A DNA stretch of 32,000 bases from positions 6,523-38,522 of the forward strand of contig JAQTOB010000007.1 of NCBI GenBank assembly GCA_028713575.1, given 5' to 3'. Of this stretch, positions 2,984 through 31,504 are shown one piece after another. Position numbers and translations under genes: made by a program. Below the pieces are notes generated by a model. It was not told the DNA's origin. It did not search any database and saw only the letters and a list, made by a program, of their open reading frames with translations. Every line of letters starts with the position of its first letter. Position 1 is the stretch's first letter. The DNA comes from Patescibacteria group bacterium (GTDB taxonomy: Bacteria > Patescibacteriota > Patescibacteriia > UBA2591 > UBA6264).

Positions 2984-4237
2984 ATGTCTAAAATTCAAAA
3001 AATAAAAGCTAGAGAAATTTTGGATTCAAGAGGCAGTCCGACTATTGAAGTAAATATTACTTTGGAAAACGGACTACAAGCCAGAACAGCCGTGCCTTCA
3101 GGCGCTTCCACGGGCAAATATGAAGCCTGGGAATTAAGAGATAGCGACAATGAACGCTATTCGGGAAAAGGGGTTTTAAAGGCTTGTGAAAACGTGGAAA
3201 AAATTATTGCTCCGTCTTTGACAGGACAGGAACCTGACCCTCAAAAAGCAGACAAACTGATGATTGAATTAGATGGAACAACTAATAAAAATCGGCTGGG
3301 CGCTAACGCTATTTTGGGCGTTTCCTTGGCCGTGTCTAGGGTCGCCGCTTTAATGGAAAACCTTCCTTTATATCAGTACATCAGAAAAGCTTATGACCTG
3401 ACTATGGAAAAATACTTTTTGCCCACACCGATGTTCAATGTGATTAATGGCGGAAAACATTCTGATTCAGGTTTAGACATTCAAGAATTTATGGTTATTC
3501 CAATTAAAGGAGAAACTTTTCAAGAAAAAACAATGATTGGCGCGGAAATTTTTTCTGCTTTAAGAAAAGTTTTAGAAGCTCGCGGACTTACTTTTGCCGT
3601 GGGCGATGAGGGCGGCTTTGCTCCCAAATTAAAAAAAACGGAAAAAGTTTTTGACCTTTTAACATCAATTGCAGATTTTACCAAGCATCAATTAGGGACT
3701 GACGCTTTTTTGGGACTGGATGTGGCAGCTTCTGTTTTTTATAAAGAGAAAGAAAAAAAATATTTTTTTGAAGGGAAAAAAAGAAACAGCGAAGAGATGA
3801 GTAAAATTTATTGGCATTGGTTAAAAAATTGGCCCTTGATGTTGATTGAAGACCCCTTTTATGAAGACGACTGGGAATGGTGGTCTAACTTTACAAAAAA
3901 AGTTGGCGATTTAAACAAAATAATCGTTGGCGACGATTTATTTACTACTAATACGGGACGTCTTCAAAAGGGGGTGGAGAGTAGGGCGGCCAATGCGATT
4001 TTAATCAAATTAAATCAAATTGGAACTTTGACAGAAACAATAGAATGCATTAATTTAGCGCGAGAGAATAAATATAAGACTATTATTTCTCATCGTTCTG
4101 GAGAAACTAACGATGATTTTATCGCCGATTTGGCTGTGGCGGTCAACGCGGATTTTATTAAATCAGGGGCGCCGAATAGAGGGGAAAGAGTGGCCAAATA
4201 TAATCGTTTAATGGAAATAGAGGAAGAATTAGGATAA
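2984..4237 (+). CDS. eno: Enolase
   Basis: 417 aa with IKAREILDSRGSPTIEV, VPSGASTGKYEA, GDEGGFAP, IVGDDLFTTN, LIKLNQIGTLTET, SHRSGETND. Confidence 0.95.
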   Translation: MSKIQKIKAREILDSRGSPTIEVNITLENGLQARTAVPSGASTGKYEAWELRDSDNERYSGKGVLKACENVEKIIAPSLTGQEPDPQKADKLMIELDGTTNKNRLGANAILGVSLAVSRVAALMENLPLYQYIRKAYDLTMEKYFLPTPMFNVINGGKHSDSGLDIQEFMVIPIKGETFQEKTMIGAEIFSALRKVLEARGLTFAVGDEGGFAPKLKKTEKVFDLLTSIADFTKHQLGTDAFLGLDVAASVFYKEKEKKYFFEGKKRNSEEMSKIYWHWLKNWPLMLIEDPFYEDDWEWWSNFTKKVGDLNKIIVGDDLFTTNTGRLQKGVESRAANAILIKLNQIGTLTETIECINLARENKYKTIISHRSGETNDDFIADLAVAVNADFIKSGAPNRGERVAKYNRLMEIEEELG

Positions 4238-4254
4238 ATTTCTAATTATTCTAA

Positions 4255-4527
4255 TAAATCTACGACATCTACGAGGTCTCGCCTCGTAGGTCGCCTCGTA
4301 GGTCTCGCCTCGTAGGTAAATCCACGAGTAAATCTACGAGGTCTCGCCTCGTAGGTCGCCTCGTAGGTAACCTCGTAGGTAAATCCACGAGTAAATCTAC
4401 GAGGTCTCGCCTCGTAGGTAACGCCTCGTAGGTAACGCCTCGTAGGTAAATCCACGAGTAAATCTACGAGGTCTCGCCTCGTAGGTCGCCTCTAGGTAAT
4501 CTACGAGGTCTCGCCTCGTAGGTAACG
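4255..4527. repeat. GC-rich nested tandem/inverted repeat array (about 4.5 units of 63-67 bp built from CCTCGTAGGT and its complement)
   Basis: AAATCCACGAGTAAATCTACGAGG starts at 4318, 4381 and 4448. There are five ATCTACGAGG-TCTCG-CCTCGTAGGT hairpins (10-bp stem including one G-U). Each is followed by 0-2 extra unpaired (N2-4)CCTCGTAGGT copies, giving about 11 intact CCTCGTAGGT copies plus degenerate ones. Confidence 0.9.
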
Positions 4528-4607
4528 CCTTGTATAATTTAGAATTTATAATTTGTTTGTCCCGCTTGGAGTTTTAAATTATATTATTTGTTTTAGAATA
4601 AAATTTT

Positions 4608-6236
4608 ATGATAGAGGAGTCTAATGCTAAAAGTAAAGGTATATTAATTATTCTAGATGGTTGGGGAGTGGCGCCGCCGAGTCGGGGCAATGCGATAACT
4701 TTAGCTAAAACGCCCTTTTTTAATCATGCGGTTAAAAAATATCCTTATACAGAAATTTGTGCTCATGGTTTTTGCGCCGGTTTGCCGAAGAATCAGCCTG
4801 GGAATTCCGAAGCTGGTCATTTAAATTTAGGCGCTGGTCGCGTAGTAAAAGATGACGCCGTTTATATTTCAGAATCAATTCAGGATGGAACCTTTTTTAA
4901 AAATCCGGCGTTTTTAGAAGGGATAAATTATTTTAAAGATAAATTTGCCTCATCAACGACCCGTCAAAAAACCCAGAAAGTTCATTTAATGGGCTTGGTC
5001 ACGGAGGAAAGTAGCGCGCATTCTTCGCCAGAACATTGGTTGGCTATGATTCGTTTTTTAAATCAGGAAAATATAAAGGAGGTTTTTCTTCATCTTTTTA
5101 CTGATGGTCGGGATTCGGGTCAGCACGCCGCGATTAAGATTTTAGAAAGATTTAACCAAGAAATAAAAAATAATAATCATCATTCCGCCGATGAAACAAA
5201 GGTAGTTATTGCCAGTGTCGTCGGTAGGTTCTATGCTATGGATCGGACCAAGCGCTGGCAAAACGTTGAACAGGCCTACAATCTTTTAACTTCAGGCAAG
5301 GGCTTAAAAGTAAAAAACGCTCAAGAAGCCATTATTCAGGCTTATAACCGCGGAGAAACGGATGAATTTATTAGTCCCACGGTCATTGTTGATGAAAAAG
5401 AAAATCCTTTAGCGACTATTAATGATAATGATGTAGTTATTTTTATGAATTTGCGTTCTGATCGGGCCAGACAATTAACCAAGTCTTTTGTACAAAAAGA
5501 TTTTAATAAAAAAAATCCAGGTTCTTTTAAAAGAAAAAAATATTTTAAGGATTTATTTTTTATCGCCTTGACTGACTTTGGTCCTGATTTGGACGAAATA
5601 AGAACAGCTTATCCTTCACGGGAAATGAAAAATTCTTTACCGTCCGCGCTTGACGGGTTGCAACAATTTTATATTACTGAGACGGAAAAATACGCCCATT
5701 TGACGTATTTTTTTAACGGCGGTTATGATCATCCGGTAGCAGGCGAGGAAAGGGTGGTTATTCCTTCTCCTCAAGAACAAAACTATGATCAAGTTCCGAA
5801 GATGAGTGCGGATAAAGTTTGCCAAAGAGTCATTAAAGAAATTAATACGGAGAGACCTGATTTTATTGCCGTTAATTTTTGTAATCCAGATATGCTTGGT
5901 CATACGGGAAATTTAGAGGCCACAATAAAGGGTGTGGAACATGTTGATAGGCAAGTGGCGAAAATAGTGGGCGTGGCTAAAAAGAAAAAATATTGGATCA
6001 TTATTACTGCGGACCATGGCAACGCAGAGCAAATGATTAATTTGAAAACAGGAGAGATAGAAACCAATCATACGGTTAATAGAGTTCCTTTTATAATCAT
6101 TAATGCTTTAAAAGAAAATATAAAATTAAAAAAAGGCGGCAAATTAGCAGATGTGGCGCCGACAATTTTGGATCTAATGAGTTTAAAAAAACCTAGAGAA
6201 ATGACAGGGAATACACTCATTAGGACATTAGCATAA
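4608..6236 (+). CDS. gpmI: 2,3-bisphosphoglycerate-independent phosphoglycerate mutase, paralog 1
   Basis: 542 aa with LDGWG, GNSEAGHLNLGAGR, TDGRD, GRFYAMDRTKRW, ETEKYAHLTYFFNGG, NPDMLGHTGN, TADHGNAE. Catalytic Ser and metal ligands are present. Confidence 0.9.
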   Translation: MIEESNAKSKGILIILDGWGVAPPSRGNAITLAKTPFFNHAVKKYPYTEICAHGFCAGLPKNQPGNSEAGHLNLGAGRVVKDDAVYISESIQDGTFFKNPAFLEGINYFKDKFASSTTRQKTQKVHLMGLVTEESSAHSSPEHWLAMIRFLNQENIKEVFLHLFTDGRDSGQHAAIKILERFNQEIKNNNHHSADETKVVIASVVGRFYAMDRTKRWQNVEQAYNLLTSGKGLKVKNAQEAIIQAYNRGETDEFISPTVIVDEKENPLATINDNDVVIFMNLRSDRARQLTKSFVQKDFNKKNPGSFKRKKYFKDLFFIALTDFGPDLDEIRTAYPSREMKNSLPSALDGLQQFYITETEKYAHLTYFFNGGYDHPVAGEERVVIPSPQEQNYDQVPKMSADKVCQRVIKEINTERPDFIAVNFCNPDMLGHTGNLEATIKGVEHVDRQVAKIVGVAKKKKYWIIITADHGNAEQMINLKTGEIETNHTVNRVPFIIINALKENIKLKKGGKLADVAPTILDLMSLKKPREMTGNTLIRTLA

Positions 6237-6347
6237 GGATATTTAGAAGATGCTTAGGAGATACGATACTTGGGGTAAGGTTTCTAAGTAAGGGCCCCTA
6301 AGCAAGTGAAATGATGAGGTGCGTCCCCATCAAGGATGTTAATATCC
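6237..6347 (+). other. Candidate structured RNA/DNA element (three nested stems) immediately after the gpmI-1 stop
   Basis: Closing stem GGATATT (6237-6243) / AATATCC (6341-6347). Inner 8-bp stem TGCTTAGG (6251-6258) / CCTAAGCA (6297-6304). Third hairpin GATGAGG-N5-CCCCATC (6313-6331). GC-rich relative to the surroundings. Confidence 0.35.
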
Positions 6348-6476: not shown

Positions 6477-8060
6477 ATGGCAGAATACCACAATAAAATA
6501 CAACCCGTAATTTTGATAATCCTGGACGGTTGGGGCATTGCGCCACCAAGTCAGGGCAATGCTGTGACTTTGGCAGAAACTCCGGTTTTAAATAAATTAA
6601 CCACACTTTATCCTACCATGACTCTTCAGGCCTCTGGTGAGGCGGTGGGTTTGATTTGGGGCGAGCCGGGAAATTCTGAGGTGGGGCATTTAAGTTTGGG
6701 TTCGGGAAAAATCATTTGGCAAAATCTTCCGCGCATCAATCAAACGTTGATGGAAGGCTCTTTTTATAACAACCCCGCTTTTTTAAAAGCTATGGAGCAT
6801 GTTAAGAAAAACAATTCCACTTTACATTTAATGGGTTTGGTTTCTAATGGCGCAGTACATTCTTCTAATGACCATTTATACGCTTTGTTGGAAATCGCGG
6901 CTAAACAGGAAATAAAAAATGTAGCTATTCATGTTTTTTTGGACGGTCGGGATACGCCTCAAGATAGCGGTCAAGGATTTATTAATGAACTAATGACAAG
7001 AATCAAAGATTTAAAAATCGGTAAAATTGCCACTTTATCCGGTCGGTTTTATGCCATGGATCGGGACAATCATTGGGAGAGAATAGAACAATCCTATTTG
7101 GCGATGACCAAAGGATTGGCAGAAAAAGAATTTAACGATCCATTAAGGGCTATAGAATCTTCTTATCAGGAAAAAATATATGACGAAGAATTAAAACCAG
7201 TAGTAATAGTGGATGAGGAAAATCAACCAGTCGGCAAAATTGAGGACAATGATGCGGTTATTTTTTTTAATTTTCGTTCTGACAGAGCCAGAGAATTGAC
7301 CAGAGTTTTTACGGCAGACGATTTTACTGGTTTTAGAAGAGAAAAAATTAAAAATTTATTTTTTGTTACCATGACAGAATATGAAAAAGGTTTACCCGTA
7401 GAGATTGCCTTTCCGCCAGAGAAGGTTGATAATCCTTTAGGAAAAATAATTAGTGACCAGGGTTTAAAACAGATGCATATTGCAGAAACAGAAAAATACG
7501 CTCATGTTACTTTCTTTTTTAACGGCGGAGTAGAAAAACCATTTTTAAATGAAAATCGTATTCTTATTCCTTCTCCGCGTGTCGCTTCTTATGACCAAAA
7601 ACCGGAAATGTCTGCGTCTGAAGTTTGTCATCAAGTTTTGTGGGGGATTGGGAGCGGGCAATATCATTTTATTGTAGTTAATTTTGCTAATCCGGATATG
7701 CTGGGCCATACCGGAAATATTCAAGCGGCGATAAAAGCCTTAGAAACATTGGATGAATTAGTGGGGCAAATTATAGATTTAGCTTTAAAAGAAAATTGGG
7801 TTTGTGTTATTACCGCTGACCATGGCAATGTGGAAGAAATGATTAATTTGCGGAGCGGAGAAATAAACAAGGAACATACCGCCAATCCGGTTCCTTTTAT
7901 TGTGGTGGACAAAAGATTAGAAAATAAAAATCTTTTAATACAATCCTTAGATTTGAACAATTTAACATCGGCCGGAATTTTAGCCGATGTGGCGCCAACG
8001 ATTTTGAAAATTATGGGATTGCCAAAGCCCAAGGAAATGAGCGGAACTTCGTTGGTTTAA
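6477..8060 (+). CDS. gpmI: 2,3-bisphosphoglycerate-independent phosphoglycerate mutase, paralog 2
   Basis: 527 aa with LDGWG, GNSEVGHLSLGSGK, LDGRD, GRFYAMDRDNHW, ETEKYAHVTFFFNGG, NPDMLGHTGN, TADHGNVE. Confidence 0.93.
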   Translation: MAEYHNKIQPVILIILDGWGIAPPSQGNAVTLAETPVLNKLTTLYPTMTLQASGEAVGLIWGEPGNSEVGHLSLGSGKIIWQNLPRINQTLMEGSFYNNPAFLKAMEHVKKNNSTLHLMGLVSNGAVHSSNDHLYALLEIAAKQEIKNVAIHVFLDGRDTPQDSGQGFINELMTRIKDLKIGKIATLSGRFYAMDRDNHWERIEQSYLAMTKGLAEKEFNDPLRAIESSYQEKIYDEELKPVVIVDEENQPVGKIEDNDAVIFFNFRSDRARELTRVFTADDFTGFRREKIKNLFFVTMTEYEKGLPVEIAFPPEKVDNPLGKIISDQGLKQMHIAETEKYAHVTFFFNGGVEKPFLNENRILIPSPRVASYDQKPEMSASEVCHQVLWGIGSGQYHFIVVNFANPDMLGHTGNIQAAIKALETLDELVGQIIDLALKENWVCVITADHGNVEEMINLRSGEINKEHTANPVPFIVVDKRLENKNLLIQSLDLNNLTSAGILADVAPTILKIMGLPKPKEMSGTSLV

Positions 8061-8634: not shown

Positions 8635-8666
8635 AAAGTTTGGTGGCCGAGCCACCAAACTTTTTT
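8635..8666 (+). terminator. Intrinsic terminator after hpf
   Basis: Perfect 13-bp stem AAAGTTTGGTGGC / GCCACCAAACTTT with a 3-nt loop, running into a T tract. A second 8-9-bp hairpin follows at 8690-8710 (TTGGGAAC-TTA-GTTCCCAA). Confidence 0.8.
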
Positions 8667-11629: not shown

Positions 11630-11665
11630 TATATAGTTGACATTAAAAAATATCAACACGGACGC

Positions 11666-11694
11666 TTGACAATTGTCTAATAATCGTCTAAAAT
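11666..11694 (+). promoter_or_regulatory. Sigma70-type promoter TTGACA-17-TAAAAT upstream of fic
   Basis: -35 at 11666-11671, exact 17-nt spacer, -10 at 11689-11694. Lies 31 nt upstream of the fic ATG. Confidence 0.6.
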
Positions 11695-11725
11695 ATGTCT
11701 ATAAAGGAATAACATAAAGTGGCAT

Positions 11726-12754
11726 ATGTTTAAACCGAAATATACCATAACTAATAGATTGTTAGGCAACATTAAGCGCATAACGGAGATAGTCGTCAGT
11801 CTTAACAGTCGCGGTTTTCCCAAGGTTGTGCTCTATGAAATGGAACGACGGGCCAGGGAAATATCGGCTCATTCTTCCACAAGTATTGAAGGCAATCCTT
11901 TACCGTTGACTGAAGTCAGAAGAATCCTTAAAAATAAGCCGGAATTTATCCGTGATTCCGAGAAGGAAGTCTTAAATTACAACAAGGCTTTAATCGAGTT
12001 GAACGGGTTAATCAGGACGGGGAAAATTTTTCCCAATATCGGCTGGTTGGAAAAAATCCAAAAGACGGTTACGGACGGTTTAATTGAAAAATATCGCTGC
12101 GGACATATTCGAACCGAAGCGGTTTTTGTTAAGAATCCGAGAACCGGAAGAACGATTTATTGGCCGCCGGATTACGGAGACATACGGCATTTACTTGAAG
12201 ATTTGTTTGATTTTTTGAAAGAAAACATCCGGGAAGCAGACCCGCTTATTTTGGCTGGAATTTTCCATAAACAATTCGTGATTATCCATCCGTTTATTGA
12301 CGGAAACGGCCGGACCGCGCGCCTGGCGACAAAAGTCCTTCTGGCGAGAATGAATCTTAATACGTTCAACTTATTCAGTTTTGAGAATTATTACAACAAA
12401 AACGTTACCCGTTATTTCCGGGAAGTAGGATTAACCGGCAATTATTACGACATTGAGAAAAAAGTAGATTTTACCTCTTGGCTGGAATATTTTACGGACG
12501 GAATCATTGACGAACTTTTGAGGGTGGACAAAGAACTAAAAGAAGAGACGGTCAGTCCCAAGACGACGCTTAATGATTATCATCAGAAGATAATTAATTT
12601 TATCAAAGAGAAGGGATTTATCACCGATAAAGATTACTCCAAAATTACCGATCGCGCCCGGCCGACCAGAAACCTGGATTTTAGAAAGCTTATTGGTCTC
12701 GGTTTGATAAAAAAGGCCGGAAAAGGTAGGGCGACTTATTATAAGTTGAAATAA
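11726..12754 (+). CDS. fic: Fic-domain protein (AMPylase-type) with N-terminal inhibitory helix and C-terminal winged-helix region
   Basis: Canonical active site HPFIDGNGRTAR. N-terminal STSIEGN matches the (S/T)xxxE(G/N) auto-inhibition motif. The C-terminus (GFITDKDYSKITD...GRATYYKL) looks like a wHTH. Confidence 0.9.
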   Translation: MFKPKYTITNRLLGNIKRITEIVVSLNSRGFPKVVLYEMERRAREISAHSSTSIEGNPLPLTEVRRILKNKPEFIRDSEKEVLNYNKALIELNGLIRTGKIFPNIGWLEKIQKTVTDGLIEKYRCGHIRTEAVFVKNPRTGRTIYWPPDYGDIRHLLEDLFDFLKENIREADPLILAGIFHKQFVIIHPFIDGNGRTARLATKVLLARMNLNTFNLFSFENYYNKNVTRYFREVGLTGNYYDIEKKVDFTSWLEYFTDGIIDELLRVDKELKEETVSPKTTLNDYHQKIINFIKEKGFITDKDYSKITDRARPTRNLDFRKLIGLGLIKKAGKGRATYYKLK

Positions 12755-12837
12755 TCTTTCATATCGAAAGTGGTAAAAAATACAAAAGTTTACTTGAGCG
12801 CCGAGAACCTAAGCAACTAAGTAAACATATAAAATAT

Positions 12838-22589: not shown

Positions 22590-22673
22590 TTATTAGAAAC
22601 GATAACATGTTCGGGATTAACAACTATTAGTAAAAATTATATTAATAGTGCAAGATAATAATACAATGAAATT

Positions 22674-22703
22674 AAACAAAACCGGAGTAATCCGGTTTTG
22701 TTT
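22674..22703. terminator. Bidirectional intrinsic terminator between the PAP2 gene and the tRNA cluster
   Basis: Perfect 13-bp stem AAACAAAACCGGA / TCCGGTTTTGTTT with loop GTAA. A/T tracts on both sides. Confidence 0.8.
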
Positions 22704-22723
22704 AATTTTAAAACAGAAAAGAA

Positions 22724-22795
22724 TAGCAGGTGTGGGAATCGAACCCACGACGGCACGCTTATGAAGCGTGTGCTCTACCGCTGAGCTAACCTGCC
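22724..22795 (-). tRNA. tRNA-Met (anticodon CAU), elongator-type; a lysidine-modified Ile2 cannot be excluded
   Basis: The reverse complement folds as a cloverleaf: GGCAGGT/ACCTGCT acceptor (G1-U72), GCTC/GAGC D stem, CACGC-TTCATAA-GCGTG anticodon arm, GTGGG-TTCGATT-CCCAC T arm. No encoded CCA. Confidence 0.85.
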
Positions 22796-31383: not shown

Positions 31384-31402
31384 GAGATAATTGAGGATAG
31401 AT

Positions 31403-31438
31403 AATCATAAAATGACGCAACGGCGTCATTTTATGATT
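31403..31438. terminator. Perfect 16-bp hairpin downstream of dnaK
   Basis: AATCATAAAATGACGC-AACG-GCGTCATTTTATGATT. Sits between convergent genes and has no clean 3' T-run on the plus strand. Confidence 0.5.
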
Positions 31439-31474
31439 AAAAAATAAATATAAGGAATTAATAAAAAAACGAAA

Positions 31475-31504
31475 GAGGATGAACAAAAACATTTGTTCAT
31501 CCTC
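31475..31504 (-). terminator. Intrinsic terminator of the minus-strand YdjM-like gene
   Basis: Perfect 13-bp stem GAGGATGAACAAA / TTTGTTCATCCTC. On the minus strand it is followed by TTTCGTTTTTTT. Confidence 0.75.

Follow-up and report, generated by a model that had tools for sequence, protein, structure and literature searches.

We analysed a 32,000-nucleotide stretch of a Patescibacteria group bacterium (assembly GCA_028713575.1, contig JAQTOB010000007.1, forward-strand positions 6,523 to 38,522; this whole stretch is the window below, and positions are counted from its first letter), and in particular an array of short palindromes that lies between two of its glycolytic genes, eno and gpmI. 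The enolase gene eno (2984–4237, + strand) is an open reading frame (ORF) whose product is identical to a protein with Pfam Enolase_N and Enolase_C matches, and gpmI (4608–6236, + strand) is an ORF whose Pfam match identifies a cofactor-independent phosphoglycerate mutase. The spacer between them, 4238–4607, is ~370 bp long and the array fills 281 nt of it (4258–4538), its first degenerate arm lying 21 nt after the TAA stop of eno. An initial annotation, made from the sequence of the window, had described about 270 bp of one 10-mer and its complement directly after eno, bounded at 4255–4527 and comprising about 4.5 units; its location and composition are correct, and its extent has been enlarged to 4258–4538, with five hairpins in a single orientation.

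Anatomy of the array

Nearly the whole array is made of two 10-mers, ATCTACGAGG as the left arm and CCTCGTAGGT as the right. When no more than one mismatch is allowed, CCTCGTAGGT has 16 sites in the window, all within 4267–4523, of which eleven are exact on the + strand and five lie on the − strand as CCTCGTAGAT (that is, ATCTACGAGG on +); 0.46 sites are expected by chance, and none of 100 shuffled sequences reached 16, the largest number among them being 3. Motif search and parsing of the + strand locate five identical hairpins, ATCTACGAGG-TCTCG-CCTCGTAGGT, at 4267–4291, 4332–4356, 4395–4419, 4462–4486 and 4499–4523, so that their starts are 65, 63, 67 and 37 bp apart, and all five are direct, with the loop TCTCG on +. 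Each hairpin is 25 nt long and has a 5-nt loop; the stem, which had been given as ten base pairs, consists of eight Watson-Crick pairs, one T.G pair at the second stem position and a closing A-T pair. The T.G pair is a wobble pair in sense-strand RNA and becomes A.C on the antisense strand.

Between and around these hairpins lie single arms, all on the + strand. Four of them are decayed left arms, the first of which, ATCTACGAC (4258–4266), opens the array, and the other three, each ATCCACGAG, lie at 4320–4328 (where the arm can pair with the preceding right arm), 4383–4391 and 4450–4458. Six surplus right arms are exact and follow hairpins 1, 2 and 3 in pairs, at 4294–4303 and 4308–4317 (preceded by the loop parts CG and CTCG), at 4359–4368 and 4371–4380, and at 4424–4433 and 4438–4447 (with a 14-nt period, CGCCTCGTAGGTAA); each of the six is led by 2–4 nt that are either part of the loop or AA/AACG. 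A further right arm with a 1-nt deletion (CCTC-TAGGT, 4489–4497) separates hairpins 4 and 5, and a decayed right arm, CCTTGTATAAT (4528–4538), closes the array. The unit is a degenerate left arm ATCCACGAG, a complete hairpin and then one or two surplus right arms, much as the initial annotation had proposed for its 63–67-bp units, and it is recovered both by direct parsing and by Tandem Repeats Finder (TRF), which reports periods of 63 and 12–14 nt. In total there are about 22 half-sites, spaced at about one helical turn plus 2 bp but irregularly (12, 13 or 14 nt), and the segment that is duplicated in the window is always the 3' part of the loop or of a linker together with the right arm (12–14 nt). 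The fraction of GC is 0.525 at 4300–4499, against 0.35–0.43 around it and 0.35 in the whole window, a real enrichment though not the extreme one first described. Both strands are predicted to fold strongly, the + strand at −138 kcal/mol (z −10.8) and the other at −128 kcal/mol (z −8.7), and the surplus right arms produce long nested pairings in the predicted fold.

The eno-gpmI junction in sister strains and relatives

The exact Eno protein of the window is also encoded by a 517-kb Joint Genome Institute (JGI) contig of a sister strain, Ga0378408_0000012 (JGI 3300037067; L001), which adds 7 kb to the coverage (39 kb in all), and by the Logan contigs L002 and L003, and a 99% identical variant is present on L027. 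The window and L001 differ at 28 columns of the 281-nt array and at only one position in the 3,176 nt from pgk to the array start, so that divergence is ~300-fold higher in the array than in the flank before it. The two strains share both middle units exactly, and the first and last units are rearranged. The locus is hypervariable, one of the possibilities raised in the initial annotation, which had also asked whether the array might be unique to one assembly. The array entry is identical in five independent assemblies, each of the 5'-edge forms is present in two of them (the window and L027 for one, L001 and L002 for the other), and two assemblies, the window and L001, span the whole array with the same middle units. 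L002, L003 and L027 all end inside the array, which indicates that assemblers struggle with it.

A relative whose Eno is 84% identical has the same synteny (wzy/TPR, pgk, eno, gpmI, gpmI2, S30AE, secA), and on four contigs its eno-gpmI junction reads TAA-AT-ATG. The 2 nt between stop and start in this relative indicate that eno and gpmI were ancestrally translationally coupled, and by this sequence comparison only the window's lineage has the ~370-bp spacer with the array in it, an insertion into an ancestrally tight junction. The window has two tandem gpmI paralogs (4608–6236 and 6477–8060), as does the relative on contig L028, and the duplication therefore predates the array. A second lineage-specific insertion is found in the same glycolytic operon between pgk and eno, where the segment 2282–2983, absent from the syntenic relatives L028 and L032, contains a truncated gene for a 23S-rRNA-intervening-sequence protein (PF05635; ORF 2705–2938, covering profile positions 43–106 only) that is probably a pseudogene.

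The same hairpin in other Patescibacteria and beside Y1 transposase genes

The exact 23-mer of the array's hairpin is present on two contigs of Patescibacteria UBA6816 and on one contig of a metagenome-assembled genome (MAG), L004, and its exact 21-mer core on 10 metagenome contigs of 35–42% GC; an identical 21–25-nt hairpin is found in at least 12 other contigs of different samples and lineages, and the loci over which the hairpin is dispersed number 13. UBA6816 has three hairpin clusters on its two contigs, and on contig L017 a second cluster lies at 3 kb from the transposase gene described below. In metagenome contigs the copies that are distant from such genes lie outside the long ORFs of the ORF listing, mostly between genes of the same direction and as singles or small clusters. 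The search of related genomes that the initial annotation recommended thus identifies a dispersed intergenic repeat of other Patescibacteria. Orientation relative to the neighbouring genes is mixed, about 6 to 3, a sample too small for a strand bias to argue for a role in RNA, and mixed orientation together with a strong fold on either strand fits an element that acts at the DNA level.

The MAG contig L004 (CAZNTW010000019.1) is labelled as uncultured Gammaproteobacteria; it has 37% GC, carries the Patescibacteria hairpin and is nearly identical in sequence to L016, and it is probably mis-binned. Next to the hairpins of UBA6816 lies a second palindromic repeat, AATTCAGGGTCTGACCCCTTGGGGTCTGACCCTAATCCCTGAATTCGAGACTCAGCCTCC, of ~60 nt (L005:6385-6440 and 6530-6590; L006:826-885), and the cluster on L005 is bracketed by a 38-nt inverted repeat (6310–6347 with 6765–6805), giving it a composite structure like those of miniature inverted-repeat transposable elements (MITEs). 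Another hairpin family, TGACAGGG-TCCGT/TCCGA-CCCTGTCA, lies on the same contigs as the CTACGAGG hairpin (L004, L016, L008 and L012), and the genomes therefore harbour at least two families of palindromes.

On contigs L006, L010 and L022 the array's hairpin lies on both sides of a gene that encodes a protein of 235–240 amino acids (AAs). The product matches Pfam Y1_Tnp at 32.6 bits (cut-off 23), and 25 aligned homologues all keep the HUH histidines and the tyrosine. Its AlphaFold model (pLDDT 86, pTM 0.86) has as its best fold match in the PDB the E. coli TnpA_REP bound to a hairpin of its repetitive extragenic palindromic (REP) sequence (4er8; E 3e-6, TM 0.62), and the TnpA structures of IS608 and ISDra2 rank below it in the same search; a sequence search of the PDB with the family profile was marginal (E 0.04–0.35). 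The protein has more than 2,300 homologues, few of which have a source name; those that do are mostly called "transposase" and are chiefly from Patescibacteria. A more distant gene, on L009, has its own flanking hairpin and a foreign cluster of the array's hairpin downstream.

Nine genes of different lineages have a hairpin inside the ORF that matches the hairpins beside the same gene, and these hairpins differ from gene to gene. L006, L010 and L022 have the array's hairpin, ACCTACGAGG-TCTCG-CCTCGTAGAT, and six further genes have sister hairpins: ATGTACGAGGTTCGACCTCGTACAT in L017, ATGTACGCGGTCTCGCCGCGTACAT in L018, CTTACGAGGCTAAGCCTCATAAG in L019, ATAGACGAGGTCTCGCCTCGTCCAT in L023, ATGTACGAGGTCTCGCCTCGTACAT in L024 and GTTTAGAGGTTGAACCTCTAAAC in L033. 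All copies belonging to one gene are identical in L017 and in L018; in the others they differ at most by inversion of the loop, a loop base or the outermost stem pair. When eight lineage representatives are aligned, 95% of the cells are paired and five of the ten stem pairs have changed on both sides, and none of 500 shuffles did as well. The palindrome is kept by compensatory changes and each gene has its own hairpin, which is the pattern of an enzyme with a cognate palindrome; as far as sequences can tell, this co-variation of gene and hairpin is the strongest argument that the window's array is of the REP type.

The internal copies are in frame and lie at L006:249-273, L010 ~2097-2117 (− strand), L017:10189-10213, L018:10171-10195, L019:10181-10204, L022:1920-1944, L023:348-372, L024:532-556 and L033 ~4880-4905, and in all nine genes for which an internal hairpin was read in the DNA it is the flanking hairpin. 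They occupy a fixed site, residues ~57–66 of the homologue P0001, which follows the N-terminal strand and helix and precedes the HUH strand. No other loop of the model has low confidence, and this one is a disordered linker ahead of the HUH motif. The peptides that they encode include TYEVSPRR, MYEVRPRT, MYAVSPRT, SYEAKPHK and CLEVEPLN. Among the 120 closest homologues, 62 have a peptide of this hairpin type (YEV.PR, YEAKPH and similar), and many others have peptides that back-translate to other palindromes (VRGSTSN, ERGLTSF, SEVGLPK), a palindrome-coded reading that for the "RGSTS-type" homologue P0027 is based on back-translation. The gene on L009 has no internal copy, yet it is flanked by its own hairpins. 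Half-sites duplicated beside a complete hairpin are common at these loci. The L006 gene has them upstream, the L024 and L026 genes have them downstream (in a copy number that differs between the two contigs, though the encoded protein is identical), and the L010 ORF has a duplication inside it that is 15 nt long and in frame (PRRLT-PRRLN). The RAYT (REP-associated tyrosine transposase) literature that was searched describes overlaps of REPs with gene ends, and we found in it no description of an in-frame internal REP copy in a transposase ORF.

Nature and origin of the array

We conclude that the array is most probably a lineage-specific, hypervariable cluster of REP-type palindromes, belonging to a hairpin family of Patescibacteria and enlarged by duplication of half-sites. 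By its sequence features it is a variant of the REP/RAYT kind that stands outside the canonical features of that family, and is neither a gene nor a conserved regulator. It is chiefly from Proteobacteria that REPs, and the domesticated transposases tied to them, are known. Characteristically, a REP is an imperfect palindrome of 20–40 nt, the transposase gene is present once per genome and passed on vertically, and in the systems studied the enzyme binds the single-stranded REP and cleaves it at CT. In E. coli, REPs form bacterial interspersed mosaic elements (BIMEs), and tnpA_REP flanked by REPs makes up the "REPtron" (Messing 2012, PMC3479197; Corneloup 2021, PMC8266576). The array shares with these a short imperfect palindrome that is GC-rich for its genome, has its imperfection near the base of the stem and clusters after genes, and the related Patescibacteria gene, like that of the REPtron, encodes a Y1/HUH enzyme bordered by the same palindromes, with TnpA_REP as its best fold match. 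Unlike tnpA_REP, the Patescibacteria genes carry an in-frame hairpin copy, reside in small, AT-rich genomes and encode an enzyme of ~235 AAs (the 4er8 chain has 165) that scores below the NCBIfam RAYT cut-off. Of the "BIME/REP-like cluster" of the initial annotation, the REP-like part stands, since the hairpin is dispersed and flanks RAYT-like genes, but BIME architecture is not supported: the five hairpins are direct without alternation, the BIME linker motifs are absent, and the linkers are tandemly duplicated surplus half-sites.

The Pseudomonas system, in which palindromic repeats are tied to a RAYT gene (Bertels & Rainey 2011, PMC3116915; Bertels 2017, PMC5581495), is similar in that the repeats are non-autonomous, the flanks of the RAYT-type gene hold the over-represented sequence and each lineage has its own repeat and gene. 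Its REPINs consist of two inverted REPs that make one long hairpin; the array has single direct hairpins and half-sites without inverted doublets, so it does not have REPIN architecture. GTAG-tagged REPs are described in eight phyla as lying between genes of the same direction or convergent genes, in dimers or clusters, some of them inside genes or overlapping RAYT ends (Di Nocera 2013, PMC3733652); the overlaps with tyrosine-transposase genes that this survey describes are with 5' or 3' ends, unlike the fixed internal site of the Patescibacteria copy. IS200/IS605 elements, which also have derivatives without a transposase, use a Y1/HUH enzyme that acts on subterminal hairpins in single-stranded DNA, as the related Patescibacteria enzymes would, and they share the layout of a coding sequence bordered by palindromes (PMC8266576). 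The array itself is not such an element, since no ORF of that family lies in or near it and it has no distinct left and right ends, and the Patescibacteria genes differ in scoring better on the RAYT than on the IS200 model and in having identical hairpins on both sides and inside. In the top-ranked literature on both subjects we found no mention of REPs in Patescibacteria or the candidate phyla radiation (CPR), and the one mention of RAYT together with CPR concerns an archaeal locus.

Several observations weigh against assignment to the REP type. The canonical unpaired 5' GTAG is absent; GTAG is on the 3' side of the hairpin and is paired with a 5' CTAC (CTAC-GAGG...CCTC-GTAG), and sister lineages have at the GTAG position self-complementary GTAC, or GTCC or ATAA. 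The best NCBIfam model of the associated gene products is REP_Tyr_transpos, but at 31–46 bits against a cut-off of 80 the matches are sub-threshold; the IS200 model gives a much lower score or no match. High copy number is expected of a REP, and the window's own genome has one hairpin cluster in the 39 kb examined. The internal unit counts come from short-read assemblies that often break in the array, and the exact copy numbers may be wrong. No Y1 transposase was found in the window or the 7 kb more of L001 by tblastn and profile hidden Markov model searches of six-frame translations, in agreement with the initial annotation, which had noted no RAYT-type transposase nearby, and among the best 120 of the more than 2,300 homologues none is on a contig as long as the 517 kb of L001. 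The closest homologue from a sibling sequencing run, P0005 (SRR22315505), was rejected as partner because its cognate hairpin differs. The window's genome may thus lack a cognate transposase, which would make the array an orphan. As a rule REPs lie far from the transposase, and the lack of a RAYT near the array is for that reason not evidence against its REP identity. With no unpaired 5' GTAG tag, no alternation, no doublet and an associated enzyme below the RAYT threshold, we regard the array as a variant of the REP/RAYT kind and not as a canonical member. A special case, a "REPtron scar" in which the array and its AT-rich flanks were left by deletion of a transposase, found no support, since the flanks align to those of the L006, L010 and L022 genes no better than shuffled sequences do.

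The array could instead be a dedicated RNA element of the glycolytic operon (a 3' stabiliser, a terminator or attenuator, or a processing site) that is selected for this role. The very stable fold of the + strand, a wobble pair on the sense strand that is A.C on the other, the position 21–30 nt after the eno stop and the effects on transcription and mRNA turnover that have been reported for E. coli REPs (PMC8266576) would all agree with this. We nevertheless consider it unlikely, since such an element would not be expected to be missing from the same junction in a syntenic relative, to change ~300-fold faster than its flank between close strains or to turn up in unrelated spacers, both along and against the direction of transcription, and beside the L006 gene the A.C mismatch is on the sense strand. 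Rfam 15 has no match at gathering score in the window and none even at E ≤ 1 in 4150–4700, no intrinsic terminator beyond the shuffle level was found in or after the array, and no terminator-like T-run follows it. A purely local minisatellite, grown by slippage at a chance palindrome and unrelated to any mobile element or transposase, is less likely still: slippage or unequal exchange typically gives periods such as 12–14 and 63 nt, and a single cluster in 39 kb with no transposase nearby is what it predicts, but slippage accounts for the growth of an array and not for the origin of its seed, so the identical 21–25-nt hairpin in at least 12 contigs of other samples and lineages, where it brackets Y1 genes, largely refutes it.

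About 22 half-sites at one helical turn plus 2 bp might also suggest an iteron-like or other array bound by a protein as double-stranded DNA (an origin, partition site or operator), as the initial annotation had considered. This is very improbable for an array with irregular spacing in the middle of a chromosomal housekeeping operon, which has eno and gpmI and no replication (as already noted in the initial annotation), partition or regulator gene as neighbours and is missing from the same spacer of the syntenic relative. Plasmid, phage and IMG/VR sequences gave no match by DNA or protein profile, so a phage, plasmid or viral origin was rejected, and CRISPR was rejected because the gaps between arms are 1–5 nt or another arm and there are no unique spacers. 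Least credible of all is an assembly artefact or a translated repeat protein, for which it can be said that three Logan contigs stop inside the array and that a 69-AA antisense ORF exists (4246–4455, − strand). The identical array entry in five independent assemblies and the full span in the window and L001 argue against the former; against the latter, which the initial annotation had also thought unlikely, all three + frames are broken by stops, the antisense ORF consists of TYEARPRR repeats, the product of an in-frame reading of the hairpin, matches no Pfam family and loses its frame in L001, and unit lengths are not uniformly multiples of 3.

If the array is of the REP type, a plausible history is that a transposase acting in trans placed one or a few hairpins in the junction, or that recombination with foreign DNA brought them in; action in trans is suggested by the IS200/IS605 TnpA and TnpA_REP enzymes, which are described as acting on hairpins in single-stranded DNA (PMC3479197, PMC8266576). 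Growth would then have proceeded by local duplication of the 63–67-bp composite unit, through unequal exchange, and of 12–15-nt segments of "loop end plus right arm", perhaps by slippage or template switching at the hairpin, and duplication of right-arm segments would give each left arm its several alternative partners. If transcribed with eno, the array would form a very stable chain of RNA hairpins that could protect the eno 3' end. Uncoupled from eno, the gpmI gene would have to be transcribed by read-through or from a promoter within the AT-rich 80 bp after the array, for which a candidate is TGTATAAT (4531–4538), made by the last decayed arm CCTTGTATAAT and resembling to the eye an extended −10 box that faces gpmI; a two-hexamer promoter scan called nothing above shuffle expectation in or after the array, this sequence included. 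Any such effects on the eno and gpmI transcripts, of the kind reported for E. coli REPs, would be by-products of the insertion and not the reason for the sequence.

A bolder proposal, which we put forward tentatively and think somewhat doubtful, is that Patescibacteria have a REP-transposase system of their own, in which a RAYT-like gene holds its cognate hairpin in frame at one fixed position; the array would be an offshoot of that system, orphaned and amplified locally. Such an internal copy might serve as a protected master copy that renews the dispersed hairpins, or as an autoregulatory or self-limiting target of the enzyme.

Two further features of the window were noted. At 11630–12782 a 1.15-kb segment with a Fic/DOC gene (11726–12754) replaces a 461-nt segment of L001, and the adjoining 3' end of secA is unusually divergent between the two (107 differences), which suggests a recombination or insertion tract. 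Unrelated long perfect hairpins with stems of 12–18 bp lie at 8635–8663, 22669–22708, 31402–31439 and 31475–31504; by their coordinates the first is shortly after the end of the S30AE ORF (8611) and the second is next to a tRNA-Met gene (22724–22795), and these hairpins may be ordinary terminators.

If the REP-type assignment is correct, the ultra-small, streamlined genomes of Patescibacteria also carry REP-type elements, and such elements can break up a housekeeping operon whose genes were coupled in translation and can change at hundreds of times the rate of the sequence around them. In these genomes such arrays also break short-read assemblies, and are a source both of contig ends and of strain markers. 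Should the proposed Patescibacteria system be real, the way in which the enzyme or replication processes hairpins would have left its signature in the half-site expansions, and a transposase clade that keeps its own target within its coding sequence would be a simple natural system in which to follow the co-evolution of a Y1 enzyme and its hairpin.

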